From: Candidatus Moraniibacteriota bacterium
GTDB taxonomy: Bacteria; Patescibacteriota; Minisyncoccia; Moranbacterales; UBA1568
Reading direction: 5' to 3'
Length of the DNA: 64,000 nucleotides
Assembly: GCA_963743885.1 (NCBI GenBank)
Contig: CAVURJ010000002.1
Coordinates: forward strand, 433,706 to 497,705
The notes beneath the pieces are model-generated. The model saw only the letters and a list, made by a program, of their open reading frames with translations. It was not told the origin of the DNA and searched no databases. Positions within the stretch are counted from its first letter, which is position 1, and every line of letters begins with the position of its first letter. Of the stretch, positions 48,100-64,000 are shown piece after piece. Both the position numbers and the translations under genes were made by a program.

Positions 48100-48672
48100 T
48101 CACTCGCCGAAGAGCGTCTCATGCAGCCGGTCGCGGCCAGAGCCGGTCTTGGCCGAGAAACGGATGACCGGTGATGGAGCGAACTCCTCTTCTAGCTTGG
48201 CAATGTTCTTGGCAGTATCGGATTGCCTCCCCTTGTCAGCTTTGTTAGCAAGTATGAGCACGTTCCGGCCATACTCACGGAGGAGCGCATAGGTCTCGCG
48301 ATCGGAATCCTTGGCACCGACCTCGGCATCGACGACAAGCACCGCCCACTTGAGGTCAATCGCCATATTGGCCGCATACCACGAGAGGTAGCCCGCAATC
48401 TTCTTCCGGAGCTTCTCAGGCAGCTTGGCATACCCGTAGCCAGGCAGATCAGCGATATACCAACTGTCATTGATGAGGAAATAGTTGATCTCGGTCGTGC
48501 GGCCAGGACGCGAATTGGAATGTGCCAAATCACGTTGCCCCACAAGCGTATTGATAATGCTCGATTTTCCAGCATTGGAACGGCCGAAAAAAGCGACCGT
48601 CGGACGCGACGGCTGCGGCATCCCCTCGGAGCCGATGACACCTTTTATGAATTGTGCAGAAGTGATTTTCAT
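48100..48672 (-). CDS. engB: Ribosome biogenesis GTP-binding protein EngB/YihA, 190 aa
   Basis: G1 GRSNAGKSS, G3 DLPGYGY, G4 NKADK; typical EngB length. Confidence 0.85.
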   Translation of the reverse strand: MKITSAQFIKGVIGSEGMPQPSRPTVAFFGRSNAGKSSIINTLVGQRDLAHSNSRPGRTTEINYFLINDSWYIADLPGYGYAKLPEKLRKKIAGYLSWYAANMAIDLKWAVLVVDAEVGAKDSDRETYALLREYGRNVLILANKADKGRQSDTAKNIAKLEEEFAPSPVIRFSAKTGSGRDRLHETLFGE

Positions 48673-49465: not shown

Positions 49466-49678
49466 TCCCCACCCTATACAAAAAGGAGTCGCAACGCGCC
49501 TCCTTTTCTCTTTCTCTTGTTTGTTACCAAACGAATGAGAGAAAGATCATGTCAGGTATAGGACTCGCCCCGCGGCACATACCCGTTATTACCGGCTTGT
49601 TTGACTTTTCTCCTTCTCGGATATACTCTGTCATGAAGTTCTTTTCCAATCAAACCAAGCGAAAAGGAGAAATTCCTT

Positions 49679-49948: not shown

Positions 49949-49956
49949 AAAAAGAG

Positions 49957-50067: not shown

Positions 50068-50134
50068 GCAACCGCTCGAAACTAAAAGGAACTCTCCGGA
50101 GTTCCTTTTTTCTTTTTTCAGTAAAATCTGGTGT

Positions 50135-50178
50135 TTTGGAAATGTAACATAATCTGACGGCCGTCGGATTATGTTACT
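50135..50178. repeat. R1 promoter/operator-like repeat, copy a (34-bp near-perfect palindrome GTAACATAATCTGACGGCCGTCGGATTATGTTAC)
   Basis: Contains the TGACGGCCGTC core shared with the other R1 copies. Overlaps the 3' end of the PaaX-like gene. Confidence 0.6.
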
Positions 50179-50773
50179 TTTTAGTTTTGTGGAGTTTCTG
50201 TGTTTTTGTAGATTTTTTGGAGCTAAAGAAATGTTTTTTAAGCTTCTGCTCATTATCAATCCAATCGACCGACATGATACGCACGAAAGAATCCGCTCGA
50301 TAGAGCGACACGAGCTCTGCGAGCTGCTTCTCGCACGGATGCGGCGAGACGAAGACGCTTTGCTGGATCCTATAGAATTTCAACTCCCAAAGGTGCTCAC
50401 GAAGAATAGTACGGAACTCGCGACTTTTCTCTGGGATATCAAACATCACGACGCGCCATTTACCATCCCATTGCCGCTTGTTCTTGAACTTGATTGAGTT
50501 ACCAAAGAGGAACTGGATACGCGCCTGGCGCTTTCCTTCCTCCGTCAAAACGAGCTTGAATGACCCATCCGGCTGCACGACCTCCCTCACGAGCTTTTCA
50601 TTACAAAGCCGCCTCACGGATCGTTTGATGCTCCGCTTATCGACCTCCTTCCACTCCCGTATCAATATCCCGAGCTTCCGATAGTACCGGATGGATGAAG
50701 TCTCCATACCGAGAGCAATTCCTCCCACAAGGAGGATGAGCAATTTCTGCTGCACTGGTCCAACCCTGAACAT
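50174..50773 (-). CDS. PaaX-family transcriptional regulator (N-terminal wHTH + PaaX_C domain), 199 aa
   Basis: N-terminus ..LLILLVGGIALGMETSSIRYYRKLGI..SIKRSVRRLCNEKLVREVVQPDGSFKLVLTEEGK.. and C-terminus WDGKWRVVMFDIPEKSREFRTILREHLWELKFYRIQQSVFVSPHP match the PaaX N and C patterns. Confidence 0.6.
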   Translation of the reverse strand: MFRVGPVQQKLLILLVGGIALGMETSSIRYYRKLGILIREWKEVDKRSIKRSVRRLCNEKLVREVVQPDGSFKLVLTEEGKRQARIQFLFGNSIKFKNKRQWDGKWRVVMFDIPEKSREFRTILREHLWELKFYRIQQSVFVSPHPCEKQLAELVSLYRADSFVRIMSVDWIDNEQKLKKHFFSSKKSTKTQKLHKTKK

Positions 50774-50794
50774 ATGATTTTACTTTACGTTTTT

Positions 50795-50925
50795 TTTCAT
50801 TTTCCCACCTTTTCAAATTGTAACACGAAATGACGGCCGTCATTTCAGGTAACAATTCAAAAACAGATACTAAATCATGAAAAGGTGACGCGAGCCGACG
50901 GCCGTCATTTGGGGTAACAATTGGT
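50795..50925. repeat. R1 copies b and c (ATGACGGCCGTCAT palindrome boxes; TTGTTA..TTACAAT promoter-like on the minus strand)
   Basis: b: TTGTAACACGAAATGACGGCCGTCATTTCAGGTAACAA. c: GGTGACGCGAGCCGACGGCCGTCATTTGGGGTAACAATT. Confidence 0.6.
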
Positions 50926-50987
50926 TTGGGGAAGATTTGGGGAGGTTTTGGGGAGATAGGAGGGAATCGGATGCCACGATTGGGTTG

Positions 50988-51112
50988 GGTACGTAATCAA
51001 TTACGTAATTATCTTTCTTTCCTCTCTAAAAAAGTGTTTACCACCGTCGTCCATGGACGACGTGGCTTGCCTGCCCGCCCCTGGAGAGACCACTTTTCTT
51101 CTCCTAAAGATT
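50988..51112. repeat. R2 repeat copy 1 (TACGTAATcAATTACGTAA box + CCACCGTCGTCCATGGACGACGTGG terminator palindrome)
   Basis: Near-identical to 54768-54895. On the minus strand the palindrome is followed by T6, so it terminates gene 51104-52600. Confidence 0.65.
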
Positions 51113-52600
51113 TCTTTCCAGTCGCTGGCTAATAATTTTCCCTATCTCCTTAAAAAGTTTTTTTCTCTTCTCTTGCGTATCTTCGTCTCTTTCATTTGAA
51201 AGATTTTCATAATAATGATCAACAACATTATCAGAAACTATATGAAGATAAGAAAATCTTTTCTTTGTCTCATTACAAGCCTTCGCCATGTGGCCAATTT
51301 CTGGATCAATAAAAACTCCATGCTTTTGAAAAAACTCAACAGCATCTTTTGTCTCATCAATTACTGATCCACACGTAACATGGCTTCCAAACAAAACATC
51401 CTGACGATCAGAAATTTCATTTTCAAAAATATTGCTCCACGTAATAGAATCTCCATGTACATAGCTCTCTGAACCACTCGCTATCCATTCGTTCGGAACA
51501 ATACCAGATTTAAGACTCCCAAGCTTTCCTATATATACAAATGTTGTGAATAAATGAAACCGAGCTAAAAATTTTATCATAAAATAAGCAGCGTCTCCCC
51601 AGATACTAAATTGACACCCAAGCAAAAGCACTCTGCAAGCACCAATATTTCCAATTTTCCATCTAAAATCTCCATCTCCATCAAACTCCACACCTTCAAA
51701 CAACCCAATACGATCAATATTCCCAAAAAGAATAACATCTGCCGTCGGAATACTCTCCAAGTTGGTATCTTTAAACGCCTGAAAAATCCTCTCATCATCA
51801 GCATGGATATAGGACACTTCTTTCTTCTTGTTCAGATTGCAAAAATAAGTAGCAACAAGATTGGCATAATGACGTATATAATCATATCCAGGGAAACAAC
51901 AGAGATAAAGCGTATCTCCATCTAAGAAAACCGTTGGCCTTTCAAAATTAAATAACTTATCATTCTTCTCATCGGTCGAGACATGCGCACTCCGATCATG
52001 ACTACCTATAACGCGCACTTTCGAAAATTCATCCTGTTTCGACCGAATAAGATGATGCATCTTCATTTCTATATACCGATGAAGAGCATCCCCCATAGAA
52101 TGTTCACTTGATAGACAGGTTGAAACATCGAAATGTTCCTTATTCGACGAAATATTCTTAACGAATTGCAAAACAGTATAGTCTCGTAACTCCGGCACTT
52201 CCTTCAACGAAACAAATTGAACCACTTCATGCTTTCCTTCTTCCATGTTGCGCGCTTCACTTTCATCGGCCACCTCGGCTACATAATACAATCCGAGCCA
52301 GTGCGTATTCTGAATAATCATTTTCTTCGTCGTCAAAAGCTCTAGGCTCGTAATGCGAAGATTGGTTTCTTCTAGAATTTCACGAATAAGTGAAGACTCA
52401 ATATCTTCTCCAAATTCAACTGTTCCGCCAGGCAAAAGCCATGCTCCCGCGCCAATCCTTTGATCTGATTTCTTTTTCAAAAGTAACACGCGTTCCTTGG
52501 TCTTATCAAAAACGATAGCCCGCGCATAAAAACGAAATATCGGCTGATTTTGATCACTGCTCATACGCTCAAATAGAAAACTTACACTACCAGTATACAC
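51104..52600 (-). CDS. Nudix hydrolase fused to a nucleoside phosphorylase/AMP-nucleosidase-like (PNP_UDP_1) domain, 498 aa
   Basis: N-terminal Nudix box GGTVEFGEDIESSLIREILEETNL. C-terminal ..VILFGNIDRIGL..ACRVLLLGCQFSIWGDAAYF..GSVIDETKDAVEFFQKHGVFIDPEIGHMAKAC..YLHIVSDNV resembles the PNP/MTA/AMP nucleosidase family. Confidence 0.55.
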   Translation of the reverse strand: MYTGSVSFLFERMSSDQNQPIFRFYARAIVFDKTKERVLLLKKKSDQRIGAGAWLLPGGTVEFGEDIESSLIREILEETNLRITSLELLTTKKMIIQNTHWLGLYYVAEVADESEARNMEEGKHEVVQFVSLKEVPELRDYTVLQFVKNISSNKEHFDVSTCLSSEHSMGDALHRYIEMKMHHLIRSKQDEFSKVRVIGSHDRSAHVSTDEKNDKLFNFERPTVFLDGDTLYLCCFPGYDYIRHYANLVATYFCNLNKKKEVSYIHADDERIFQAFKDTNLESIPTADVILFGNIDRIGLFEGVEFDGDGDFRWKIGNIGACRVLLLGCQFSIWGDAAYFMIKFLARFHLFTTFVYIGKLGSLKSGIVPNEWIASGSESYVHGDSITWSNIFENEISDRQDVLFGSHVTCGSVIDETKDAVEFFQKHGVFIDPEIGHMAKACNETKKRFSYLHIVSDNVVDHYYENLSNERDEDTQEKRKKLFKEIGKIISQRLERNL

Positions 52601-52647
52601 CCATCCAAAAACCTAGTCAGTTCTCAAATTTGACACAAAATCTAGTG

Positions 52648-52815
52648 TTTTGGAAAGGTGACGCGAGCCGACCCTCCGGAGGCGGGTAAACGGCCACCCG
52701 CCTAGACTCGGCGAGGCTGGTCATTTGGGGTTACTTTTTGGAAATGAGAAGATTGAGAGGAAAACGGCTGGGTTGGGTACGTAATCAATTACGTAATTAT
52801 CTTTCTTTCCTCTCA
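52648..52815. repeat. R1 copy d (interrupted by a 47-nt hairpin insertion) plus partial R2 copy 2
   Basis: TTTTGGAAAGGTGACGCGAGCCGAC[cctccggaggcgggtaaacggccacccgcctagactcggcgaggctg]GTCATTTGGGGTTAC, then GGGTACGTAATCAATTACGTAATTATCTTTCTTTCCTCTC. Confidence 0.55.
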
Positions 52816-52872
52816 AGAAAAAAGGATGGCCTTTACGGTCATCCTTTGCAAGTCATTGCCTGATCTTTGCGT

Positions 52873-53334
52873 TCAAGCCGAAACCAAAACCTCCCAGCCA
52901 CGCTCCCGAAGCTCGCCGCGAAGCTTCATCCACAGCTTGCCGAGATGGTTCAGCCCCTGCCAGTCCGGACCGCGCCCCCAGAACGAATCCTTGGGCGAAT
53001 CCTCGACAAGCTCGGCGTTACCAGTCTCGAGTAGCTTCTCGCGGACATACGCATGCTGTTCAATCTTCATCCGGAGAAACTTCTCCATGATATCAAGCTT
53101 GATATCGTTCCAATCAGCACGAACCTTGTCCTGATACTTCCGGCCGATCTTTTTGGAATCATGCGCCGACATCGCCGTCCGGATCTCTTCGACAATAGCC
53201 GGATCGGTAAACTTCGCCGCCTGATATGCATGCTCGACGGTCATCCAAATGACACCATCTTGCAAAATCGCAAACGACGAGAAATTGGAAAGGAAATACC
53301 GCTTACCTTCGTAAAACAGAACTTTCTCTTGCAT
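52873..53334 (-). CDS. NADAR (YbiA/DUF1768) domain protein, ~153 aa
   Basis: MQEKVLFYEGKRYFLSNFSSFAI...TVEHAYQAAKF...KKIGRKYQ...LLETGNAELVEDSPKDSFWGRGPDWQGLNHLGKLWMKLR: the full NADAR signature. Start trimmed to the internal Met. Confidence 0.8.
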   Translation of the reverse strand: MQEKVLFYEGKRYFLSNFSSFAILQDGVIWMTVEHAYQAAKFTDPAIVEEIRTAMSAHDSKKIGRKYQDKVRADWNDIKLDIMEKFLRMKIEQHAYVREKLLETGNAELVEDSPKDSFWGRGPDWQGLNHLGKLWMKLRGELRERGWEVLVSA

Positions 53335-53419
53335 GTCCCACCTCCTGCCAGAAAAAAGAAACGTAAAAGAACTTCCGTAGAGTATCGCAAGAAATAGCCA
53401 AGAAGTCAATTTCGAATGA

Positions 53420-53560
53420 TTTTGGAAAGGTGACGCGAGCCGACGGCCGTCATTTGGGGTAACAATTCTGATTTGTGAGGTTTTGGGATGAGGACAAATT
53501 AGGTACGTAATCAATTACGTAATTATCTTTCTTTCCTCTCTAAAAAAGGTGTTTAGTTAA
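53420..53560. repeat. R1 copy e plus partial R2 copy 3
   Basis: TTTTGGAAAGGTGACGCGAGCCGACGGCCGTCATTTGGGGTAACAATT ... AGGTACGTAATCAATTACGTAATTATCTTTCTTTCCTCTCTAAAAAAGGTGTTTAG. Confidence 0.6.
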
Positions 53561-53638
53561 TTTTCTTCTTAAGTAAAGAAAAGGAGGTCCGTCAGATCCT
53601 GACAAACCCCCTATTTAGCGCTTAATCGAAGCGAGGCG

Positions 53639-54061
53639 CTATCCGCTAACTGGGCATTCAACTCCGAGCGGAACCTCGATACCATTGAGCTCCATAGTCT
53701 GGCGCCGTACTTCAAAAAAGGCATACCAGTTGGAAATCTCGTTGAGATCGATAGCACTCGGAATCTGGAGCAGCCGATTCAGGTATGCGAAGGCTTTCGG
53801 TGAAGAAAGCGCCCACTCCCTTGCCATGGTAGTGACATCAGCATTGCCAGAAAACTCCACCAGGCACTTGGCCATCGATGCATCGACGGCGTAGAGCAAG
53901 GACAAGACTTCTTGGACTGCCTCGGTGGGCGTTGTCCACATCTGGCCGGCATCCAATGCTATCAATATCCCGAGTGGTGATTCCATCCGTTTTCTGATGC
54001 TGGCGAACAACAGCGCATCAGATGCATCACCTGGCATGAACACAAACTTGCAATCTGACAT
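53639..54061 (-). CDS. Hypothetical protein, 140 aa
   Basis: KFVFMPGDAS...ILIALDAGQMW.. looks Rossmann-like. Family unknown. Confidence 0.3.
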   Translation of the reverse strand: MSDCKFVFMPGDASDALLFASIRKRMESPLGILIALDAGQMWTTPTEAVQEVLSLLYAVDASMAKCLVEFSGNADVTTMAREWALSSPKAFAYLNRLLQIPSAIDLNEISNWYAFFEVRRQTMELNGIEVPLGVECPVSG

Positions 54062-54072
54062 GGTAGACCTCC

Positions 54073-54474
54073 TCAGACGACTGTGGTAGCGGTACCGGAA
54101 AGATACTTCCGGATCTCGTCGACATAGCGTACAGGCACGATGACAGAGCCCTTTCTCGTACTAGTGTTGTAGTTCGAAAAGATAAACTCCGATTCGGGCC
54201 TCCGATGACTTCTCGTGTAGAGTAATACGAGGTCCTTCCGGAACATCCCCTTCATCGTCACGTTGTACGGTGGCGATACCATCTCGTAAGCCGTGATAAC
54301 GAGTGAGACGTCGATACTCGGTCCGCCTTCCCTCCCGAACCAAAAAACAACTGGGGGCGGTTCGCATTCAAGCACTGTGAGGCATCCGAGCGAAAGCAGG
54401 CAGCGCTGTGCGTTCGATCCCTCGAATACGCCAAGTGTGTGTGTTTGCGACGAATCGCTGTTTGGATGGGTCAT
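54073..54474 (-). CDS. Hypothetical protein, 133 aa
   Basis: Co-operonic with 53639-54061. A degenerate R1-like sequence lies upstream (54590-54650). Confidence 0.3.
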   Translation of the reverse strand: MTHPNSDSSQTHTLGVFEGSNAQRCLLSLGCLTVLECEPPPVVFWFGREGGPSIDVSLVITAYEMVSPPYNVTMKGMFRKDLVLLYTRSHRRPESEFIFSNYNTSTRKGSVIVPVRYVDEIRKYLSGTATTVV

Positions 54475-54767
54475 CCGACTTCTCCTTGTAAAAAGAACTG
54501 CCCTATCATGACGTAGAGCATCGCCGTTACTGCCTTACGACAGCCACCTCCGCATCCGCAGAGGAATTCAGGGTATAGTAGCCTACACGCAAAAACATGT
54601 CAATTCCGCATGAAATCAGGGGTTTTGAAAATGTATCATAATTCCACCTTCCGGAGACAGGCGAGTGATCTGGAATATGTCTTACTATTTTCGCGATTGC
54701 GTAAATTGTAAGACTTTTTGTTTAAGAGAAAAAAGGGAGGAAAAGATGTGGCAGAAAAAGAATGAAT

Positions 54768-54895
54768 ACGTAATCAATTACGTAATTATCTTTCTTTCCT
54801 CTCTAAAAAAGGTGTTTACCACCGTCGTCCATGGACGACGTGGCTTGCCTGCCCGTCTCTGGAGGGACCACTTTTCTTCTTCTTAGAAAACAGTT
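54768..54895. repeat. R2 repeat copy 4 (full, with the CGTCGTCCATGGACGACG palindrome)
   Basis: TACGTAATCAATTACGTAATTATCTTTCTTTCCTCTCTAAAAAAGGTGTTTACCACCGTCGTCCATGGACGACGTGGCTTGCCTGCCCG... Confidence 0.65.
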
Positions 54896-54901
54896 CTTAT
54901 A

Positions 54902-55792
54902 TTAAAACAGGTCGTCAAGAAAAACCTTTATAGCAAGTGCTGGACCAGTAATATCAGTAATATCAAATTTTATTGTAAAAGAATGCTGGGAACTATCTAT
55001 AAGAATTTTATAACTAACAATATCTTTATAAAAACGGCCCGCACTCAAAAATCTCTCTACTTTGCCCAATAACTCTTTTGTATTAAAAAATTCACCATCC
55101 TTTTTAATTTCTTCCTCAAGATTTTCCGCTTGAAATTTTCTAACAACGGCCAATGGTAGTATCCGTCTTAAAAGAAGAATGCATGCATTTGATTTAGCAT
55201 GTTCGTAATTAAAATTAAATTCTTCACATAATGCCGCAATATCTTTCGGAACCGCCTTTAAAAGAGTGGCGGAGAAAATTGTTACCGTAGCAACTTTTTT
55301 GTCTGTAGGCTCATCCACATTTTCTGAAGATTCTAATTCACCAGGAAAAATTAATGGGCCATTATCCATATAATTATTCAAAAGAAAACCTTTATTTTGA
55401 AATAGGGCTTCCAATGGACCTATAAGACTACGAAGCTTATAGATTCTCTCATTATTTTGTTGGGTCTTGTAATCTTTCTTCTCTAGTTTTCCAAGCTCAT
55501 CTCGCCAAGAAATCAACATGCGATGTGTAAGCATTGATAAACTCTCAATCATCTTTTCTGGTATCTCAATTTCTACAGCATGAGGTTCCCCGTCACACAT
55601 CTTGTTAGGGTCTTCATAATTCAAGTTAAAACTATCAATTTTATTTCCAATATCAACGTATGCTTCCAGCAAATCATCGATCTGCTCACGAACATCATCA
55701 TTGACAGATATGTGTCTTAAATCCTGTATATCCTTAAGAAAACGATAAATCGCAATCCTAAAATATTTCAAAGTTGTAGAATAAATCCTCAT
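54902..55792 (-). CDS. Hypothetical protein in the AT-rich block, 296 aa
   Basis: Low-GC ORF. No known motif. Confidence 0.35.
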   Translation of the reverse strand: MRIYSTTLKYFRIAIYRFLKDIQDLRHISVNDDVREQIDDLLEAYVDIGNKIDSFNLNYEDPNKMCDGEPHAVEIEIPEKMIESLSMLTHRMLISWRDELGKLEKKDYKTQQNNERIYKLRSLIGPLEALFQNKGFLLNNYMDNGPLIFPGELESSENVDEPTDKKVATVTIFSATLLKAVPKDIAALCEEFNFNYEHAKSNACILLLRRILPLAVVRKFQAENLEEEIKKDGEFFNTKELLGKVERFLSAGRFYKDIVSYKILIDSSQHSFTIKFDITDITGPALAIKVFLDDLF

Positions 55793-55797
55793 ACAAA

Positions 55798-56211
55798 TTA
55801 TCTATTCCTACATTGCTCTTGATACGCTGGATTTGATTTTACAAAATTCAATGCTTTTTCCAAATACGAGGCGCCTTGAAATTTAGGAATCACAGTATAG
55901 GTAAGCATTGCCTGATAAGCCCCCGAAGAGTTATTGGCTCGAACTCTGGAAACCAAAGAATTAAACTCCTCCTTATTTAAGGTTCCAATAAAAGCATTCT
56001 GGGTACTAAAAGCACTCGCTTCATCAGCATAGCATTGAGGAAACGTTTCGTATGATTTTCCTATCTCTTGTGAATCGCTACCCATATTTACGAAAACAGA
56101 TCCGTCAATATGATTCAAAACATGTTTTATTTCGTGAGCTAACAATATCGCAGTGAGCAAATCATCTTTGGCACTATATTTCGGAGAAACAAGAATATCA
56201 TACTCATCCAA
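55798..56211 (-). CDS. HExxH zinc-metallopeptidase-like domain protein (possibly the C-terminal part of a frameshifted larger gene), 137 aa
   Basis: AILLAHEIKHVLNH (HExxH). The annotated start is a TTG; the frame stays open 5' until a TGA only ~25 codons upstream, overlapping the 3' end of 56139-56888. Confidence 0.35.
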   Translation of the reverse strand: MDEYDILVSPKYSAKDDLLTAILLAHEIKHVLNHIDGSVFVNMGSDSQEIGKSYETFPQCYADEASAFSTQNAFIGTLNKEEFNSLVSRVRANNSSGAYQAMLTYTVIPKFQGASYLEKALNFVKSNPAYQEQCRNR

Positions 56212-56888
56212 AGATTGGGTGGGAGAAAAAGAAACATACCCTCAGCCCCGGCCATTTCCTGATCTGATTTGGCATATTGTATATTTAAACAATTTGATAC
56301 AGCTCTAACTCCTTCGCTATATACAATATTACCTTTATCTCCGGATTGTTCCATGCGCTGCGAAATCAGACTTATTGCCCTTTTAAATTCGTCCGGGATA
56401 CCATATCCAATATCTCTTATGCAATAAAATGGGTTAAGATCGTCAAAGAACCAATCATTATTTTCATATATGAAACCAGCATAGCGCCGCAAGCTGCTCT
56501 CTCCATTTTTACATTCGACCACAGAACAATCTCGTATCGTTTGAATCGCATATCCTTTACCGTCTCTTACAACCGCGCTATTTTCAACAAAAGCAAGATT
56601 CCCCGACTTATCATTAAGTTTTAAATATATCTCTCTAGAGATTTTCTGTTTCGCTTCATTCGTAAAATATAAATCGTATATTTTCCCATAATCACCCCTA
56701 TCTGATAACTCAACCATCTCTTTAATTCTTTGCTCTAACTTGCCAGAATTCTGATCCAATACAATGGCTGGCGAGCTCGTTCTCATACTAGCCATAACAA
56801 TAATAGCGCCTCCAAGCGCCAAGAAAATCCACAGGAATATTTGAGTTGTTCTAATCTTCATAATGTTTACAAACAAAAAAAGAAACAA
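56139..56888 (-). CDS. Secreted/membrane-anchored hypothetical protein, 249 aa (nonsense-like C-terminal tail; possible frameshift into 55798-56211)
   Basis: N-terminal signal/TM helix. The last ~30 residues (MFLFLPPNLWMSMIFLFLRNIVPKMICSLRYC) look like out-of-frame read-through, and a T5 run sits at the junction. Confidence 0.35.
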   Translation of the reverse strand: MFLFLFVNIMKIRTTQIFLWIFLALGGAIIVMASMRTSSPAIVLDQNSGKLEQRIKEMVELSDRGDYGKIYDLYFTNEAKQKISREIYLKLNDKSGNLAFVENSAVVRDGKGYAIQTIRDCSVVECKNGESSLRRYAGFIYENNDWFFDDLNPFYCIRDIGYGIPDEFKRAISLISQRMEQSGDKGNIVYSEGVRAVSNCLNIQYAKSDQEMAGAEGMFLFLPPNLWMSMIFLFLRNIVPKMICSLRYC

Positions 56889-56993
56889 CGAAAGAAAAAA
56901 TCAAGAAAGTGTTTGTTTATGCCTCAAGTATATCATTTTCCCTTAAAAAAGGTACTTGACCCCTTTTCTTCTTGTTTTCTTCTCTCATAAAAT

Positions 56994-57512
56994 TTAAGAT
57001 TTTTCTTTGTTTACGCGCCCCATCAAGCCCATTGATAAATACCTTCGTTTTGCATTACAAAAAACAATATCATTGTTCAAAATGTCTTTTCTGAGTCCAT
57101 GGTACGCCATCCTCAAATTACAAGCGAAGTCTTCCAAGTTCAACATTATTTTCCCATTTGGTGTAGCTTCAAAATGATGCCCCGCTTTGTTTGCGTCAGT
57201 AAAAACATACGTTCCTCCTTCAGCATAAGAATGGACAAGTCCACAGCGAAGATCTTCCCATAATTTTTCAGAGTTATAATTCGGAAGATATTTTTCCGTA
57301 AAATTAATAAACCTCGCTCTTGAACCGCCTTTCACACTTCCCTTTTCCAAGCCAGCAAAAAACCCAGCCATAGCATCTATAAAACATGCTCCTAAAATAA
57401 AACCGGCCAGTTTAGCCTCTCCGGCAATTGATGCTCTTTCAATATCCCCATATTCCCAGCCAAGGAGATATTCGTCCAAAGTTTCCACTAATTTTTCTTT
57501 TGTGAGATTCAT
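56994..57512 (-). CDS. Hypothetical protein, 172 aa
   Basis: ORF in the AT-rich block. Confidence 0.3.
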   Translation of the reverse strand: MNLTKEKLVETLDEYLLGWEYGDIERASIAGEAKLAGFILGACFIDAMAGFFAGLEKGSVKGGSRARFINFTEKYLPNYNSEKLWEDLRCGLVHSYAEGGTYVFTDANKAGHHFEATPNGKIMLNLEDFACNLRMAYHGLRKDILNNDIVFCNAKRRYLSMGLMGRVNKEKS

Positions 57513-57518
57513 ATGAAT

Positions 57519-57863
57519 TTAGAAACGAGAGCGTCCTGCTCTTAAAATAGCAACAAATTCGGAAAGTCTAGAAGAGTCATCAACATACCCACCACTTGGG
57601 CCATCATTTGCAAATTGCCAATAACCCTCTTCACACCAAACAACACCGGTATTTATTGTCTTGCCTCCATCTATGTATACAACTTCAATATCACTCCCAA
57701 AATGAGGGATATCAAAGACCCGACAAACAACCGCGTCAATATACGGATAGACTTTCCCAATCGATATCCAACTTTTTGACTGTACCTGTGGTTTTTCGAT
57801 TAACACAATATAATTAAATAAATTATTTAGATTTGATAATAATTTCTGCCGCTTTTCCTGCAT
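57519..57863 (-). CDS. Hypothetical protein, 114 aa
   Basis: ORF in the AT-rich block. Confidence 0.3.
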   Translation of the reverse strand: MQEKRQKLLSNLNNLFNYIVLIEKPQVQSKSWISIGKVYPYIDAVVCRVFDIPHFGSDIEVVYIDGGKTINTGVVWCEEGYWQFANDGPSGGYVDDSSRLSEFVAILRAGRSRF

Positions 57864-58596
57864 TTTTCAGCAACTCTTTTGAAAGAATTGGCTCTTTTGT
57901 TTCTGAAATACTAGGTGCACAAAAAACATCTGCTGCTTTTTTCATAAATTCTTTTTTAATTTCCGTATTTATTGTATTTTCTTCAGACTCACTTGTTTCA
58001 CCAATACTCAAAAGTATATTGTGATACGTTTGCGCCAGTGTTTTCCTATTGGCATAGTCATTTCTCAACTTCACATAATACGAATATTGGGCAGCAGAAA
58101 ACCATACAGCGCTTATAAATATAAAATCCAAAATGTAAAATTCAAACCTTTCAAACCAAGGTTTTCCATTTGCTTGATGAAGCGCCCAAAAAAATGATCC
58201 CGCTAACGCAGAAAAAGAAAGAAAAATAACAACTAGCCAGTTTATAATACTTTTTTTATATTCCTCTTCTTGTTCCGCGTAAGCTTCAGCCATCTTTCTT
58301 AATTCTCTTTTATTTATCTCGCTCTGTTTTTGATTATTAGCCTCCTCGAGGGAAGAAACTTTTTTTATTAATTCTTCCTTCTCTACTTCCAATCCACTTA
58401 TCTTTAAACTAGAGTCCAACTCTTTATCAGAAATTCTTTTATCAAAATCAGACTTGGCATCCGTAAACGCTTGTTTGGAGGATACTAATTCCTCTTCAAG
58501 TTTAGAATTATCTTCTGATAATTTAGCGACTTGAGATTCTAGATTTCGTTTCTCATTTTGCAACTCTATATAAGAAGCTTTATATGCTTTACCCAT
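57823..58596 (-). CDS. Membrane protein with long N-terminal coiled-coil and two TM helices, 257 aa
   Basis: K/E-rich heptads then WLVVIFLSFSALAGSFFWALH and FYILDFIFISAVWFSAAQYSYY. Confidence 0.4.
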   Translation of the reverse strand: MGKAYKASYIELQNEKRNLESQVAKLSEDNSKLEEELVSSKQAFTDAKSDFDKRISDKELDSSLKISGLEVEKEELIKKVSSLEEANNQKQSEINKRELRKMAEAYAEQEEEYKKSIINWLVVIFLSFSALAGSFFWALHQANGKPWFERFEFYILDFIFISAVWFSAAQYSYYVKLRNDYANRKTLAQTYHNILLSIGETSESEENTINTEIKKEFMKKAADVFCAPSISETKEPILSKELLKNAGKAAEIIIKSK

Positions 58597-58602
58597 AAAA
58601 TT

Positions 58603-58632
58603 AGTTAAAAAGCGGGGCCAAAATGGCCCCGC
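58603..58632 (-). terminator. Terminator GCGGGGCC-AAAAT-GGCCCCGC + U-run downstream of dnaK
   Basis: 8-bp GC stem. On the minus strand it is followed by TTTTT. Confidence 0.65.
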
Positions 58633-58639
58633 TTATTAG

Positions 58640-60604
58640 TTACTTTTTCTCCTCGTCAGCTGGCTTGTTCCCTTCGACATGCTCAGGGCCGTTGGCTTCG
58701 GCTGCGGGCTCGGTTTCAGCATCTTTAGGCTGCTCTGTAGCACCCGAGGCTCCGGCTTCGCCTGTACCCTGTCCACTATCCCCTGTACCCTGTGGTGCGG
58801 CTTGTGCCGCGGCATACAGTTTCTCGCCAATCTTCTGGGCTGCCTGGGAGAGGGCTTCGGTCGCCTTCTTGATCACTTCGAGGTCGTCGCCATTCTTCAC
58901 TTTGGCGAGCTCAGCGATAGCATCTTCGACCGGCTTCTTCTCTTCGGCTGTCAGCTTGTCGCCCGCATCCTTCATTGCCTTTTCGGTCGTATAGGAGAGC
59001 GTGTCAGCCATGTTGCGCGCTTCGATCAGTTCCTTCTTACGCTTGTCTTCCTCGGCGTGGAGCTCGGCATCCTTCTTCATGCGCTCGATCTCATCCTTGG
59101 AAAGTCCAGTGGACGCTTCGATGCGGATGTTCTGAGACTTACTGGTCGCCTTGTCCTTGGCCGTGACGGTCAGGATGCCGGAGGCGTCGATGTCGAAGGT
59201 TACCTCGACCTGTGGCACGCCGCGCGGAGCGGGAGCGATGCCATCGAGGATGAATTGTCCGAGCGACTTGTTGTCACCTGCCATCTCGCGCTCGCCCTGG
59301 AGCACATGGATCTGCACGGACGGCTGGTTGTCAGCCGCGGTCGAGAAGACCTGGGAGCGCGATACCGGCACAGTCGTATTGCGGTCGATGAGCGGCGTAC
59401 GCACACCACCGAGCGTCTCGATACCGAAGGTGAGCGGGGTCACATCGAGGAGGAGCACATCCTTCACGCTGCCCTCGAGCACACCACCCTGGATGGCCGC
59501 GCCGGCGGCGACGACTTCATCCGGATTGACGGTGATGTTCGGCTTCTTGCCGAAGAACTTCTCGACGCTTGCGAGCACGAGCGGCATACGGGTCATACCA
59601 CCGACCAGCACCACTTCGTTGATGTCGCTCGGGGAGAGCTTGGCATCAGCGAGGGCTTTCTTCACTGGCTCAAAAGTCGCCTCCACCAGGTCATGCACCA
59701 GCTCCTCGAGCTTGGCGCGGGTCATCTTGATGAGGAGGTGCTTCGGACCATTGGCATCGCTCGTGATGAACGGCTGGTTGATCTCGGTATCCTGCGCGGT
59801 CGAGAGTTCGATCTTGGCCTTCTCGGCGGATTCCTTGATGCGCTGGAGCGCGAGCGGATCGCGGCCTAGGTCGATGCCTTCCTGCTTCTTGAACTCACCC
59901 AAGATCCAGTGGATGATGCGCTGGTCGAAGTCGTCACCACCTAAGTGTGTATCACCGTTGGTCGATTTCACTTCGACGGTGTCCTCGGCTACTTCCAGGA
60001 TGGAGATATCGAAGGTACCGCCACCGAGGTCATACACGGCGATCTTCTCGTCTTTCTTCTTGTTGAAACCATAGGCGAGCGCGGCCGCGGTCGGCTCGTT
60101 GATGATGCGGCGGACATTGAAGCCAGCGATCGTGCCTGCCTCCATGGTCGCCTTGCGCTGCGAGTCGTCGAAATACGCCGGGACGGTGATGACGGCATCG
60201 GTGATCTTCTCTCCGAGCTTCTCTTCGGCATCGGCCTTCAGCTTGGCGAGGATCATAGCGGAGATCTCCTGCGGTGTGTATTCCTTGCCGCCCATGACGA
60301 TCTTCACGCCTTCACCGGCCTGGATGATCTTGTACGGGAGGGTCTTCGCGTCGCGGCTTACTTCCTCGTCATTGAAATGACGGCCGATCAAGCGCTTCAC
60401 GGAGAAGAGCGTGTTTTCCGGGTTGGTCACGCCCTGGCGCTTGGCCAGGAGGCCCACCAGGCGCTCACCGGTCTTGGAGATAGCCACCATCGACGGGGTC
60501 GTGCGGTTGCCTTCCTTGTTCTCAAGGATGGTCGGGCTGCCACCCTCCACCACGGCCATGCAGGAGTTAGTTGTTCCCAAATCGATACCTAAGATCTTGC
60601 TCAT
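58640..60604 (-). CDS. dnaK: Molecular chaperone DnaK (Hsp70), 654 aa
   Basis: [22 protein letters not shown]..., [12 protein letters not shown], and a C-terminal EEKK tail: canonical Hsp70. Confidence 0.95.
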
Positions 60605-60795
60605 ATTCGTAATTATTAGTCAGTTAACGGGTTAACGCGTTAACGAGTTTATTAATGCGATGAATTAGATAATTTACTATCCAGTTAACGGGTTTGTAAG
60701 AGTCCGAACACCGAATTAACGGGTTAACGGGTTCTTAAGAAACCAACTAACAGGTTACTGTGTTAACGAGTTTATTAATGCGATGAATTAAATGC

Positions 60796-61188
60796 TTATT
60801 TACGTTGGATAAATTCTTTTTCTTTTCTTTTTTTCTCGAGATAACTGATGAATGCTCCTATTTGACCGGAAAGTTTTTCCAACTCATCCATAATTCTGTC
60901 AAAATCCTTCTTTGCGACGTATCCGATAGCGAATGCTATATGCATCTGATTTCTTGTCTCTCCCGCCGAGCCCTTGGCTATCTTCAGGAAACGGATGAAT
61001 TCATTGTTATTGTTCTTCTCAAATCCCTCGACTATATTGGAACTGACTGACACTATAGCTCTCTGTATCTGATCTCTCAGACCGAAGTCTTTGGCAAACT
61101 TTCCTTGTGATGTAATATCGTATACATCCTTTGTCAAAGCCAAACTCGATTTCCAAATGTTCAGCTCTTCGAATTTTTGTATTTTCAT
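60796..61188 (-). CDS. Four-helix-bundle protein (23S rRNA intervening-sequence protein family), 130 aa
   Basis: FEELNIWKSSLALTKDVYDIT..FAKDFGLRDQIQRAIVSVSSNIVEGFEKNNNNEFIRFLKIAKGSAGETRNQMHIAFAIGYV matches the TIGR02436-type signature. Confidence 0.75.
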   Translation of the reverse strand: MKIQKFEELNIWKSSLALTKDVYDITSQGKFAKDFGLRDQIQRAIVSVSSNIVEGFEKNNNNEFIRFLKIAKGSAGETRNQMHIAFAIGYVAKKDFDRIMDELEKLSGQIGAFISYLEKKRKEKEFIQRK

Positions 61189-61297
61189 AACAACGTATCA
61201 GTTGTTCGGTTAACGAGTTCACGAGTTAACGGGTTGGGAATACAGACCTTGCATTTAATTAAACTCGTTAGCCCGTTAACGCGTTAACATATTAATT

Positions 61298-61849
61298 TTA
61301 ACGGACGATTACTCTTGCTGCTCGTATTACTTTGTCTCCGAGGCGGTAGCCTTTTTGGATGACTTTGGAGATTTGGTGATTGCTTTCTTCCTGTTCACTG
61401 TTCACTGCTGACTGTTCACTGTCTATGGCCTCGTGAATGGTAGGGTCGAACGCCTCCCCTTCCTTCGCTTCGATCGTCTGCATACCATTGTCAGTGAGGA
61501 CGGTCTCGAGCTGCTTCTCGATGTATTGGATGCCGACCACCCACGGGCTCTCCTTCTGTTCAGCCGGCACGTGCATCGTGGCGGAGCGGAAATTGTCGAG
61601 GACTGGGATGATATCGAGCACGAGCTTCTCTATCAGGTATCCGCCGAGCTCCTTCTGGGATTCCGCCTGGCGCTTCTTGTAGTTCTCGAAGTCCGCCTGG
61701 CAGCGCTTGAGATCGTTCAGATACTCTTCGGCCTTCGACTGCCACTCCGATTCTTCCTTCATTTCTTCGGTAATGGTCGTCGGCTCATCTGTATCAATAA
61801 TCTTCTCGTCGCCTGACTCTTCGACTTCTTGTTTCTTTTTGTGCGGCAT
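61298..61849 (-). CDS. grpE: Nucleotide exchange factor GrpE, 183 aa
   Basis: Coiled-coil N-terminus, then ..VLDNFRSATMHV.., FDPTIHEAI and GYRLGDKVIRAARVIV. Confidence 0.9.
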   Translation of the reverse strand: MPHKKKQEVEESGDEKIIDTDEPTTITEEMKEESEWQSKAEEYLNDLKRCQADFENYKKRQAESQKELGGYLIEKLVLDIIPVLDNFRSATMHVPAEQKESPWVVGIQYIEKQLETVLTDNGMQTIEAKEGEAFDPTIHEAIDSEQSAVNSEQEESNHQISKVIQKGYRLGDKVIRAARVIVR

Positions 61850-62006
61850 AGGCTTCTTATATAAATTCTAAACTCAAAATTACAAGCTCCAAATAAATCT
61901 CAAATCCGAAATTCAAACTTTTGAAATTGTGATTTTTGATTTATTTGGAAATTGGGATTTTGGATTTTGACATTTGACAGCTCGCTACGATTACCGACTC
62001 TCTTCA

Positions 62007-62750
62007 TCAGGAAAATGGGATAAAAAGGACAAGTATCAACGATGAGGAGAGCAGTTTCTTCATGTATTCGATCAGGGACTTATTCTTGGCGTACTCCATG
62101 CGCTTGGGACCGATGATAGCGAGCATACCGCGCTCACCTTCTTTGTTCTCATATGGCGCAACGATCATGGAGCAATTGTCGATACCGGAGATAGGGTTCT
62201 CGTCGCCGATGAAGATGCGGGTCTCACCGCTCTTCAGCTTGACCATGACGTCGTCGAGCTTCTCATCGAGCGAGTCGAGCGTCTCCACCAGACGGCAGAG
62301 CTCGTCGATCTCCTGGAACTCCGGCTTCTCGATGAGTTCCTTCATGCCGAAGTCATAGAGCTCGTCGCGGCCGATGATGCCGGAGACAGCCAGGTTGCCC
62401 GAGAGCGCCGAGAGGAGCTTGGCGGTGCTGCGACCCATGCGGGTCTGCTTGGCCTTCATCACGAGAAGCTCTTTCTGGAGCTTGCGCTGATCCTCGCGGG
62501 AAAGGTCCTCATCACCCATCATCTCTTCGACATACAGGCGATAGCCCTGATCGGTCGGGATGCGGCCGGCGGACGTGTGCGGCTGGTAGAGGTAGCCCTC
62601 CTCCTCGAGCGCCACCATATCGTTCCGAAGCGTCGCCGAAGACACCGGGAACTCGAAGTGCTCAAGGAGCGCCTGCGAGCCGACTGGCAGCGCGGTCTTG
62701 GTATACAGCTCGACGATGGCCGAGAGGACTTGTTTTTGACGAGAGTTCAT
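62007..62750 (-). CDS. hrcA: Heat-inducible transcription repressor HrcA (short form), 247 aa
   Basis: MNSRQKQVLSAIVELYTKTALPVGSQALLEHFEFPVSSATLRNDMVALEEEGYLYQPHTSAGRIPTDQGYRLYV. Confidence 0.85.
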   Translation of the reverse strand: MNSRQKQVLSAIVELYTKTALPVGSQALLEHFEFPVSSATLRNDMVALEEEGYLYQPHTSAGRIPTDQGYRLYVEEMMGDEDLSREDQRKLQKELLVMKAKQTRMGRSTAKLLSALSGNLAVSGIIGRDELYDFGMKELIEKPEFQEIDELCRLVETLDSLDEKLDDVMVKLKSGETRIFIGDENPISGIDNCSMIVAPYENKEGERGMLAIIGPKRMEYAKNKSLIEYMKKLLSSSLILVLFIPFS

Positions 62751-62881
62751 AGGGAAGCCGGTATTATGTATCCGGTATTATGTATCATGTATAAGATGCG
62801 AGATTCTTCGCTTCGCTCAGAATGACCAAAATTACAAATTTTCGGATCATTCGTATCGATATATACAGTATAAAATATGGT

Positions 62882-62908
62882 TTAGCAGTCGTCAAGAGAG
62901 AGTGCTAA
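62882..62908. promoter_or_regulatory. CIRCE operator TTAGCAGTC-N9-GAGTGCTAA
   Basis: One mismatch to the TTAGCACTC-N9-GAGTGCTAA consensus; ~130 nt upstream of the hrcA start. Confidence 0.8.
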
Positions 62909-63049
62909 TATAACAGGGTTTAGGGTATAGAGATATAAGCCAAAGGGACTAGATCCCGGGTCCCTCCATAGGCGGGCAGGCAGGCCCGGGATGACAAAAA
63001 AGAAAGTTTTGTAATTTAAGGTTTAATGGTATTTAAAAGATAGAAAAGG

Positions 63050-63085
63050 GAAAAGCCAGGGCGCGTTGCGCTCCTGGCTTCATTC
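63050..63085 (-). terminator. Terminator GCCAGGAGCGC-AACG-GCGCCCTGGC + U-rich tail after the Cys-rich ORF cluster
   Basis: On the minus strand the hairpin is followed by TTTTCCCTTTTCTATCTTTT, downstream of the stop at 63102. Confidence 0.5.
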
Positions 63086-63101
63086 GGTCAAACGGGTGAG
63101 T

Positions 63102-63338
63102 TCACCCGCAATTCTTGCGCTTCTCACGGGCACACTTTCCCCGCTTGGCCTCGCTACAGCACTTCTGACAGCTGGTAGGGTCATACCACTGAGCGATCTC
63201 AACGTGGGTATTCAAGTCTGGAAATCGCGGGCAGAAGACATCCTGCTCGTTGGTGTAACCCTCAGGAACCTCCGCGCGCTGGATGGCGGCGGAAACTTCG
63301 GGTGCTACTGCGACAGCTGTACTTGCTGGCATTTTCAA
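63102..63338 (-). CDS. Cys-rich small protein paralog A, 78 aa
   Basis: ..FCPRFPDLNTHVEIAQWYDPTSCQKCCSEAKRGKC..; shares the [FY]CP...C..CC pattern with the two ORFs upstream. Confidence 0.35.
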   Translation of the reverse strand: MKMPASTAVAVAPEVSAAIQRAEVPEGYTNEQDVFCPRFPDLNTHVEIAQWYDPTSCQKCCSEAKRGKCAREKRKNCG

Positions 63339-63393
63339 CCCCTTGGAATAGTTGGTTGGCTGTTTTCTCTCTGTCGGGGTCGGATATATGCGG

Positions 63394-63687
63394 CTAATGC
63401 TGGCCGCCGTATTTCGAATTGCAGCAACGCTGACTCTGATAGCACCTGCTACATGAAGCCTCCGGATTCATGCCGTTGAAATGCGCCCTCGCGATCTTCG
63501 CGATACCACCCTCGATGCGGATCGTCGGGCAATAGACGGGATCGTCAGGAAGCGGTATCGGCCCGATGACCGAAATCACCGGTACCGGAAACGGCTTTTC
63601 CGGAAAACCACCGCACTCACAGACGTTCCACACGGAGTGCAGAAACGGTTTTCCTGGATCAATCCCGACAACAACGCTTTGACTCAT
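63394..63687 (-). CDS. Cys-rich small protein paralog B, 97 aa
   Basis: ..YCPTIRIEGGIAKIARAHFNGMNPEASCSRCYQSQRCC.. Confidence 0.35.
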   Translation of the reverse strand: MSQSVVVGIDPGKPFLHSVWNVCECGGFPEKPFPVPVISVIGPIPLPDDPVYCPTIRIEGGIAKIARAHFNGMNPEASCSRCYQSQRCCNSKYGGQH

Positions 63688-63711
63688 GCGAATCTCCTTT
63701 TCCGGAAAACT

Positions 63712-63975
63712 TCAATGATGCTCGAGACTGCTTTGCATCTTCTCGGCCAACTTACTGCACTCGTCATGCAAATCGCAGTGCGTGCAAGCCGGATCTCTGC
63801 AGCAGTACTTCTCGGCAGCTTCCGGAAGCGGTATGGTGTGGCGATGGACAGGACAATACTCTCCTGGCTCGCTGTTCTCGCTAAACCCCTGGAAAGACTC
63901 TTCGTTGACATTGGCCCTATCGACCAATCCTGCCGGACCGATCGGGACATTTCCTACTCGTAGTGACATGATCAA
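63712..63975 (-). CDS. Cys-rich small protein paralog C, 87 aa
   Basis: ..YCPVHRHTIPLPEAAEKYCCRDPACTHCDLHDEC.. Confidence 0.35.
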   Translation of the reverse strand: MIMSLRVGNVPIGPAGLVDRANVNEESFQGFSENSEPGEYCPVHRHTIPLPEAAEKYCCRDPACTHCDLHDECSKLAEKMQSSLEHH

Positions 63976-64000
63976 GCTCCTTCGTTTCTAGTGGACATTC

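Follow-up and report, generated by a model that had tools for sequence, protein, structure and literature searches.

What is a gene of the kind known from intervening sequences (IVS) of 23S rRNA doing between two heat-shock genes? The question is raised by a 64,000-nt stretch of a Candidatus Moraniibacteriota genome (GCA_963743885.1, contig CAVURJ010000002.1, positions 433,706 to 497,705; hereafter the window, by whose numbering all coordinates are given), in which the minus strand carries hrcA, grpE, a 130-amino-acid (aa) open reading frame (ORF) of family PF05635 and dnaK, in that order. The region between grpE and dnaK is probably a selfish cassette of about 670 bp, akin to the ORF-bearing IVS of 23S rRNA and lodged in the spacer of an mRNA operon. 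The same repeat-bracketed unit could be found between unrelated genes in many genomes, which argues for a selfish, evolutionarily mobile cassette and not for a part of the heat-shock machinery. A first-pass annotation of this DNA had proposed a small mobile cassette, and the proposal gained support from the occurrence of the unit in at least three other, unrelated operon spacers, its ORF-less forms, two copies within one genome, relatives with an empty site and a foreign codon composition. Mobility is thus supported by distribution and sequence comparison, and not by a transposition caught in the act.

The four-helix-bundle gene and its inverted arms

On the minus strand, hrcA (62750..62007) is the first gene of the operon order, grpE (61298..61849; PF01025, E 5.5e-39) and dnaK (58640..60604; PF00012, E 3e-254) form the upstream and downstream host flanks, and the four-helix-bundle ORF ('IVS protein', S23p family) lies between them at 60796..61188. 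The whole cassette comprises 666 bp (60623..61288, minus strand), as delimited by the outermost octamer arrays and a 44-nt terminal inverted repeat. The 18-nt leader of dnaK (60605–60622) is similar to the leader in the relative L018, whose site is empty.

The ORF matched PF05635 (23S_rRNA_IVP) with an E value of 1.3e-33 and 115.8 bits (cut-off 33.8), and TIGR02436 ('four helix bundle protein') with an E value of 2e-32 and 111.6 bits (cut-off 24). Together with the gene order, these matches bear out the first-pass annotation of a 130-aa IVS-type gene between grpE and dnaK. The closest solved structure by sequence was Xanthomonas Xcc0516 (PDB 2GSC, E 2e-15). An AlphaFold (AF2) model built from 38 homologues showed four long helices (pLDDT 92.2, pTM 0.85), and a Foldseek comparison superposed it on 2GSC with an E value of 2.6e-6, TM scores of 0.79/0.87 (range 0.79–0.90) and an rmsd of 1.8 Å, and on Bacteroides BT_0352 (2RLD) with TM scores of 0.74/0.88. 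Both solved homologues were deposited with five chains each. The next-best match was Avd (4DWL, 8UB7), a protein of diversity-generating retroelements (DGRs), with TM scores of 0.7–0.86 and 10–12% identity. The family motif RxxxSxxxNxxE (Lin 2006, cited in PMC3936711) reads R-AIV-S-VSS-N-IV-E in the window protein; S47, N51 and E54 never vary across the 38 homologues, and R43 hardly does. By thresholds, fold and motif, the protein is a member of PF05635/TIGR02436, and the superposition on 2GSC and 2RLD, with the Pfam and NCBIfam scores, agrees with the earlier view that it is the same kind of gene as in rRNA IVS. Database searches revealed 1499 relatives; of the best 120, those that are named belong to Patescibacteria. 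No match to the protein was found in PADLOC or PHROGs, and PF22296 (bAvd) was not matched; PF05635 was the only one of the two families recovered.

The heptamer GTTAACG occurs 14 times in the window, where dinucleotide shuffles gave 4.3 ± 2.4 copies (maximum 10; 0 of 100 shuffles reached 14), and 12 of the 14 copies fall within 60623–61288. Tandem Repeats Finder (TRF) revealed four arrays with an 8-nt period at 60622–60649 (3.5 copies), 60716–60733, 61209–61235 and 61262–61288, and the string GTTAACGGGTTAACGCGTTAACG is located at 60623–60645. The GTTAACG-type flanking repeats of the first-pass annotation are therefore real. Its duplicated 30-mer is a genuine duplication as well, although the exact repeat is a 29-mer (60639–60667 and 60762–60790) and the positions first given were 1–3 nt off. 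This 29-mer sits inside a 46-nt repeat (60625–60670 and 60748–60793) with 89% identity and a distance of 123 nt. Two features had been overlooked, namely the 44-nt inverted repeat at the ends of the insert, which is 80% complementary (60608–60651 with 61260–61303), and the low G+C content of the insert, 35–43% compared to 57–63% in grpE and dnaK. Elsewhere in the window, neither the gene nor the GTTAACG arrays recurred.

The canonical form of the unit, as read from its relatives, is a promoter-less PF05635 ORF whose ATG and stop codon are embedded in two inverted arms. Each arm consists of 8-nt units in tandem, two to three in number, which read GTTAACGN on the upstream side and NCGTTAAC on the downstream side. 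Compared to this form the insertion in the window is rearranged, with an extra internal arm 5' of the ORF and a duplicated and a decaying arm 3' of it. All of its arms lie on the minus strand. The 5' terminal arm (61250..61288) reads in the sense direction GTTAACGC GTTAACGG GCTAACGA GTT, followed by the inner segment TAATTAAATGC, and pairs with 60608–60651. It also pairs with an internal inverted array, R1 (61209..61235), to form an ORF-less arm-loop-arm hairpin 5' of the ORF, with 27-nt arms of 81% complementarity and a 26-nt loop (RNA fold −29.5 kcal/mol, z −3.2); the same layout was present in L098. A small hairpin predicted by RNA folding, AACAAC-TGATAC-GTTGTT (61189..61206), abuts the ATG. 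Directly 3' of the stop codon lies the internal 3' arm, copy A (60745..60793), which consists of the 29-mer unit and a degenerate NCGTTAAC array. It is followed by a middle array (60712–60733) and a solitary unit (60684–60690), together 60684..60733 and located by repeat search and TRF, and by the 3' terminal arm, copy B (60623..60670), which reads TAATTCATCGCATTAATAAA CTCGTTAAC GCGTTAAC CCGTTAAC in the sense direction and forms the terminal inverted repeat together with the 5' arm. The sense layout from the grpE stop codon is therefore 9 nt, the forward 5' arm, the rest (about 15 nt) of the 26-nt loop, the reverse array AAC CCGTTAAC TCGTGAAC TCGTTAAC, the small hairpin, the ORF, reverse copy A, the middle reverse array, terminal copy B, 18 nt and the dnaK ATG. 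When the 716-nt sense RNA was folded, the forward 5' arm paired with the terminal 3' arm and enclosed everything in between (z −3.0; 0 of 20 shuffles were equal).

Selective constraint could be assessed against L130 (JGI 3300045995), which carries the same composite cassette with a 96%-identical protein. Nucleotide identity between the two was 79.8% for grpE and 78.6% for dnaK, with third-position mismatches of 41% and 45%, respectively. For the PF05635 ORF it was 88%, with mismatches of 6%, 0.8% and 29% at codon positions 1, 2 and 3, a pattern which indicates that the protein is under purifying selection. The 5' arm matched at 38 of 39 positions, R1 at 27 of 27, the pre-ATG hairpin segment (61189–61208) at 20 of 20 and the terminal 3' arm (copy B) at 48 of 48, while internal copy A matched at 41 of 51 and the middle segment at 31 of 42 with an additional 32-nt indel. 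Conservation is thus far tighter in the outer arms and the 5' hairpin than at synonymous sites, which argues that these arms are functional as the cis-acting part of the element; the internal arms are decaying. The G+C content at third codon positions (GC3) of the ORF is 0.43 compared to 0.68–0.80 in hrcA, grpE and dnaK. The PF05635 gene was below the host genes in every genome examined, including L098 and L001, yet its GC3 rose with host G+C, which resembles the partial amelioration of a foreign gene.

A single CIRCE, the HrcA operator (62882–62908, one mismatch), could be identified by sequence match upstream of hrcA. It overlaps a promoter-like site, which is also the best one found (CIRCE and site together at 62867..62908, no strand assigned), and neither a promoter-like nor a terminator-like site was present on the sense strand of the cassette spacers. 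Probable read-through from the heat-shock promoter follows from this arrangement, and the promoter-like site at CIRCE is the likely source of cassette transcription. The protein would then be a passenger, made as part of the heat-shock operon from a promoter controlled by CIRCE and HrcA. CIRCE itself, known from dnaK and groE operons, was considered as the source of the inverted repeats and rejected; it is likewise an inverted repeat in the same operon, but TTAGCACTC-N9-GAGTGCTAA lies separately at 62882–62908 and is unrelated in sequence.

Distribution of the unit and history of the grpE–dnaK spacer

Genomic context was fetched for three homologues, and a scan of species-representative genomes added 29 loci. 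A copy with 84% identity lies between grpE and dnaK in L001–L005, one with 71% identity between a histidine kinase (HisKA) and a response regulator gene in L006–L008, and one with 66% identity between a glycosyltransferase-4 gene and pgk in L009–L017. In all three contexts about three GTTAACGN-like units run straight into the start codon (...GGGTT followed directly by ATG), and the reverse complement of the GTTAACGN units begins at the stop codon (TAA followed directly by CTCGTTAAC...). The arms abut the ATG and the stop; the whole TAA and the first letter of the ATG thus fall inside a potential stem. A difference between L012 and L009 was considered as a polymorphism involving an ORF-less copy and was rejected; it is a scaffold gap of 100 N.

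Non-redundant PF05635 loci numbered 35, and in 23 of them the 64 nt preceding the ATG were more complementary to the 64 nt following the stop than in any of 40 shuffles; the spacings of repeated hexamers peaked at 8 and 16 nt. When the 17 best loci were stacked, 85% of positions paired in register compared to 25–43% when slid by 1–3 nt, although the former value is biased upward because the register was picked to maximise pairing; double-sided changes occurred at all 24 positions of the stack. These pair statistics were taken from ungapped stacks; a MAFFT alignment of the arms was gapped and lost the register. In canonical relatives, 20–23 of 27 arm positions pair.

The architecture was constant while the unit varied. 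The units were GTTAACGN in Patescibacteria and ATTAACGN in some of them, GTTACGNG in L108, GTAGCTNN in L076, AACGTTNN in Anaerolineae, TAGTCGNN in Chloroflexi, GGTTCAAG/CTTGAACC on a Riemerella plasmid and GGGAAAAG/CTTTTCCC on a Nostoc plasmid. The Moraniibacteriota genome UBA12141 contains two ORF copies at different loci (L102 and L103), which are 90% identical over 472 bp and have inverted ends of about 42 nt and unrelated flanks. In the same gene cluster of this genome, ORF-less arm-loop-arm miniatures occupy the adjacent trmD–ftsW and ftsW–mraY spacers (L102), and another ORF-less arm-loop-arm copy was found in L104. A relaxed array pattern gave no hit in 78 loci (373 kb) of relatives lacking the PF05635 gene. 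Both neighbours were co-directional with the gene in 21 of 28 loci, with gaps mostly of 25–60 nt. These sequences indicate that the PF05635 cassette family has spread through Patescibacteria into short co-directional spacers and has left ORF-less miniatures that resemble miniature inverted-repeat transposable elements (MITEs). The window contains no rRNA (a Rfam scan at gathering thresholds gave two tRNAs only), and no rRNA was found near any of 20 related loci. Copies of the flanking repeats inside rDNA, for which the first-pass annotation had suggested a search, were accordingly absent from the window and from these loci.

At the grpE–dnaK spacer itself, a scan for GrpE relatives yielded 80 loci and three states of the spacer: empty (30–93 nt), occupied by an hsp20 gene, or occupied by a PF05635 gene. 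The cassette was present in the window, L130, L098 and L001–L005. The closest relatives, L018 and L019 (DnaK 93–94% identical to that of the window), have an empty spacer of 72–74 nt; L027 has an empty spacer of 30 nt, and L023/31 are also empty. An hsp20 gene (132–150 aa) was found in L020, L022, L024–L026, L049, L064, L085–L088, L090, L094 and L096, giving the order hrcA-grpE-hsp20-dnaK, and PF00011 was confirmed in the two hsp20 genes tested (E 7e-20 and 9e-19). These spacer ORFs of about 135 aa in many relatives had been candidates for divergent PF05635 proteins and are in fact Hsp20. The initial statement that hrcA, grpE and dnaK are normally contiguous is therefore only partly right, as the spacer often holds hsp20 in related Patescibacteria. 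The comparison of the dnaK operon among relatives, which the first-pass annotation had called for, revealed that only some carry the insert and that those which do carry it with repeats. The pattern that was to count against a cassette, the gene at this position in all relatives and without repeats, was thus not observed. As separate observations, L028 and L030 have a GC-rich spacer of 336 nt without an ORF, and the GrpE proteins of L001–L003 are 295 aa long with an N-terminal NUDIX domain, compared to 183 aa in the window and L004.

Phylogenetic trees of DnaK and HrcA agreed with each other. The Moranbacteria locus L098, which carries the PF05635 gene, branches first, followed by L001–L005, which also carry it. 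The remaining group comprises the hsp20 carriers, L027 and L023/31 with their empty spacers, and the window, which has the gene and is sister to L018/L019. Identities of the PF05635 protein were 85% (window–L001), 80% (window–L098) and 76% (L098–L001), and those of HrcA were 74, 70 and 66%, in the same ranking. The window, L130 and L098 also have the unusual composite layout in common. The simplest history of the locus on these comparisons is one old insertion followed by several losses, although the spacer may also have been entered repeatedly; the copy in the window is an old, partly rearranged resident and not a fresh insertion. Occupied and empty sites could be compared only where DnaK identity between the lineages was 94% or lower, and loss is still possible for this reason. 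An exact-protein look-up of the window GrpE, made for presence and absence at strain level, returned no record. No target-site duplication was recognisable at the AT-rich borders. A footprint of the cassette in the L018/L019 spacers was also considered and rejected; local alignment was significant only for the last 24 nt or so, the dnaK leader, and the rest scored as shuffles did. Independent insertion into the same spacer is certain from L076, in which the grpE–dnaK spacer is occupied by a PF05635 gene of 29% identity (E 2e-38) whose arms are of the GTAGCT type.

Proposed roles of the arms and the protein, and competing explanations

Several observations weigh against a mobile selfish cassette. 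At this locus the PF05635 protein diverges in the same ranking as HrcA, which fits one ancient insertion that was inherited vertically with several losses and leaves mobility here undemonstrated. Neither a recent insertion polymorphism nor a target-site duplication or a footprint came to light. The copies of the window and L098 are non-canonical, since their ORF has no directly abutting forward array. The cassette and the adjacent genes carry no recognisable transposase, recombinase, nuclease or reverse transcriptase. No vector was indicated either; the window protein had no match among phage proteins and no relative in IMG/VR, and the plasmid matches (n = 29) were all below 60% identity and from other phyla, with other repeat units in the two sampled. 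Finally, mismatches in the arms were G.U in 40 cases and A.C in 42, so that no G.U excess exists and RNA pairing is not specifically supported.

The absence of a G.U excess favours recognition of the arms at the DNA level, or binding of both arms by a sequence-specific protein. Within the reading as a selfish cassette, the arms would be recognised as DNA, most simply by the cassette's own protein. The four-helix bundle is suggested as the recogniser because no other protein accompanies the arms, its divergence tracks the change of the units, and its solved homologues are five-chain rings. An oligomer of the bundle that binds the tandem units is the most likely role on these sequence comparisons, held tentatively and at somewhat less than even confidence. 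In the transcript, the paired arms may in addition build a long stem, which RNase III could cut, making insertion into an operon tolerable. Such cutting, by analogy with the IVS of Coxiella, is possible but a little less probable than the binding role, with which it is compatible.

A bolder extension, which we regard as unlikely on present evidence, is that PF05635 'IVS proteins' in general bind the arms sequence-specifically for a widespread, previously undescribed class of mobile cassettes without a canonical transposase. A pentameric ring would then read the tandem 7–8-nt units at both ends of its own gene and, for copying or moving the unit, would bring in an enzyme of the host (reverse transcriptase, nuclease or recombinase). 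If so, rRNA IVS, ORF-less hairpins and the PF05635 genes in cas operons and other gene clusters would represent one type of element.

The alternative that survives best places the function in RNA. The arms would act mainly in the transcript as an IVS-like stem cut by RNase III, with spread secondary; the cut would uncouple the grpE and dnaK mRNAs and free the message of the four-helix-bundle protein with hardly any leader, and the protein may autoregulate by binding the repeats of its own RNA. This account overlaps with the selfish-cassette reading and differs only in which function is primary. It would explain the 716-nt fold that joins the 5' arm with the 3'-most arm (z −3.0, 0 of 20 shuffles), the local 5' hairpin (−29.5 kcal/mol, z −3.2), the position of the A of the ATG and the stop TAA inside the stem of canonical relatives and the co-orientation with neighbours in 21 of 28 loci, and RNase III excision has been demonstrated for the Coxiella IVS with a homologous ORF (PMC4990558). 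However, a helix of the sense strand predicts a G.U excess where 40 G.U and 42 A.C mismatches were counted, the variable eighth position would place one mismatch in each helix turn, and the downstream spacer alone folds no better than shuffles (z −1.5). The ORF-less copies in neighbouring spacers and the lineage-specific units are left unexplained. RNA as the primary level of action is therefore considered improbable, at about the same standing as the general arm-binding class.

Far less probable is an ancestral operon member, in which the protein would be a genuine accessory of HrcA, GrpE and DnaK and the repeats an operator, attenuator or RNA thermometer for dnaK. Four sampled lineages (window, L130, L098 and L001–L005) do have the gene at this position, with divergences that rank like those of the host genes, its flanks are strongly conserved, and in other genomes the spacer contains hsp20, a true heat-shock gene. 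However, the unit of ORF and arms is also present in two-component, cell-wall and glycolysis gene clusters, and PF05635 genes occur inside cas operons (PMC3936711). It is missing from the nearest relatives, its GC3 is 0.25–0.37 below that of the operon genes, and CIRCE sits 5' of hrcA with an unrelated sequence.

The similarity to Avd raises the further alternative of an orphan Avd, left over as a remnant of a DGR. Patescibacteria are rich in DGRs, and 4DWL and 8UB7 (TM 0.7–0.86) follow directly after the structures of the IVS family in the Foldseek ranking. The protein, however, matches PF05635 and not PF22296 bAvd, its identity to Avd is just 10–12%, and octamer arms are not a feature of DGRs. 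No pair of template and variable repeats (TR/VR) was found among direct repeats of at least 35 nt in 48000–64000, and no reverse transcriptase among the operon genes or the ORFs of at least 150 aa in 46–58.7 kb. A DGR remnant is thus a very doubtful explanation, even more so than an ancestral operon member. Chance, that is, noise of an AT-rich spacer with a spurious ORF, can be dismissed: although spacers are AT-rich and short two-copy repeats are often coincidental, 14 GTTAACG copies against 4.3 expected (0 of 100 shuffles reached 14), 115.8 bits on Pfam, 1499 homologues and a purifying-selection pattern leave it next to no probability.

Other repeats of the window, known elements and significance

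Further repeats could be observed in the window. The hrcA–grpE spacer (61850–62006) contains a hairpin at 61867–61970, an AT-rich inverted repeat with 51-nt arms of 76% complementarity (RNA fold z −4.5); its arms seemingly consist of GGATTTTG/CAAAATCC-like units of about 8 nt, and L019, the closest relative, has nothing similar in the corresponding spacer. The hairpin may represent an arm-loop-arm element without an ORF that belongs to a different repeat class. In the prfB–ftsE spacer (42000–42134), four GTAAYTN units of 7 nt face four NNRTTAC units in an arm-loop-arm hairpin, the architecture of the ORF-less copies in L102, but with a fold energy that is not significant (z −1.3). Direct tandem heptamers of the form (A/G)GATAC(N) lie on the sense strand at 41204–41251, 48680–48727 and 62758–62792; they form no hairpins and immediately precede the starts of minus-strand ftsX, a GTPase ORF (48100..48672) and hrcA.

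Directly downstream of dnaK, a block at 55000–58600 has a G+C content of 0.27–0.41 compared to about 0.52 in the window. Its ORFs (296, 249, 172, 114 and 257 aa) had no Pfam match, and a search of the 172-, 114- and 257-aa ORFs against PADLOC and PHROGs gave a single marginal match (phrog_250, E 0.0017, for the 257-aa ORF); the block is probably a separate acquired island. Repeated intergenic modules at 50134–54883 flank genes for PaaX/Cas2-like, NUDIX and NADAR proteins. They comprise a 58-nt unit with the palindrome TACGTAATCAATTACGTAA in four copies (50976, 52764, 53490 and 54753), four GC-rich palindromes around GACGGCCGTC and a 78-nt pair with 94% identity. A sequence similar to these modules, AATCAATTACGTAA, was present in the empty grpE–dnaK spacer of L018. 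A 27-nt unit (GACCTGAGAGCTTTCCCGCATCACGCC) is repeated 24.3 times with 94% identity at 24578–25233. Outside the window, five viral contigs carry long GTTAACGN arrays and no PF05635 gene. Two IMG/VR contigs, L131 (142 kb; 5083–5137) and L135 (90 kb; 7040–7094), have about ten GTTAACGT octamers each and no PF05635 gene nearby. These viral octamer arrays may be iteron-like and are probably unrelated to the cassette.

Among known systems, the 23S rRNA IVS of Leptospira, Coxiella burnetii and Haemophilus, with their S23p ORF, come closest to the cassette. Both have an ORF of the PF05635 family enclosed by terminal inverted repeats that are able to form a long stem, and both lack a good Shine-Dalgarno sequence. 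In Coxiella the IVS is closed by a terminal stem of 28 bp, which RNase III cuts, and three tandem heptamers precede the S23p ATG; rRNA IVS have long been proposed as mobile elements (PMC4990558). The tandem repeats directly before the start are three GACAGAT heptamers in Coxiella and about three GTTAACGN octamers here. The two differ in location, an intergenic spacer of an operon here and helix 9, 25 or 45 of 23S rRNA there, and in constraint, since the ORF here is under purifying selection and decay has been reported for that of Coxiella. The element therefore works like an rRNA IVS but fails the class-defining location in 23S or 16S rRNA. ORFs of 23S_rRNA_IVP type have been reported in rRNA insertions of CPR bacteria (PMC11270868).

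Avd is a pentamer which binds nucleic acid and reverse transcriptase. The cassette protein shares its four-helix-bundle fold (4DWL, 8UB7; TM 0.7–0.86), but the identity is 10–12%, no reverse transcriptase or TR/VR pair lies nearby, and inverted octamer arrays are lacking in DGRs. The resemblance between PF05635 and Avd has been noted in the DGR literature (PMC10053308).

MITE-type elements resemble the cassette in the colonisation of operon spacers by short, co-transcribed, hairpin-forming inverted-repeat units. The Correia elements of Neisseria, ERIC and REP/BIME are MITE-type elements of operon spacers. The ORF-less arm-loop-arm copies in L102 and L104 and the 5' hairpin of the window resemble such elements, and terminal inverted repeats are conserved between copies at different loci (L102/L103). 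Unlike these elements, the full-length form has a conserved non-transposase ORF and arms of tandem 8-nt units, and no target-site duplication was identified. Integron cassettes are similar in being a small promoter-less co-oriented ORF served by an outside promoter, with an imperfect inverted-repeat site. However, the arms here lie at both ends and not as an attC at one, no integrase or cassette array is present, GTTAACG misfits the GTTRRRY core, and the insertion sites are scattered operon spacers; attC identity was ruled out by sequence and layout.

A search of full-text literature gave no account of tandem-unit inverted arms outside rRNA, of ORF-less derivatives or of a spread through operon spacers; subscription journals were mostly uncovered and a prior description is possible. 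PF05635 genes have drawn functional interpretations from their neighbours. Eighteen of them, located within cas operons (between cmr3 and cmr2 in one example), were interpreted as CRISPR-associated (PMC3936711), and guilt-by-association scores still flag such genes (PMC10910872). The reading as a selfish cassette would remove such false functional links, to CRISPR in those operons and to heat shock here. The unit of ORF and inverted arms is not tied to rRNA but would be a general cassette of operon spacers, whose units co-vary between the arms and with the protein. It predicts that the protein binds its own arms and that the arms are required in cis, and cultivable carriers are available in a plasmid of Riemerella anatipestifer, plasmids of Nostoc and the gmk–nadD spacer of Flavobacterium columnare. 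The origin of rRNA IVS and the function of their conserved ORF, both open since the early 1990s, and with them the idea that this ORF serves mobility (PMC4990558), would thereby become testable.

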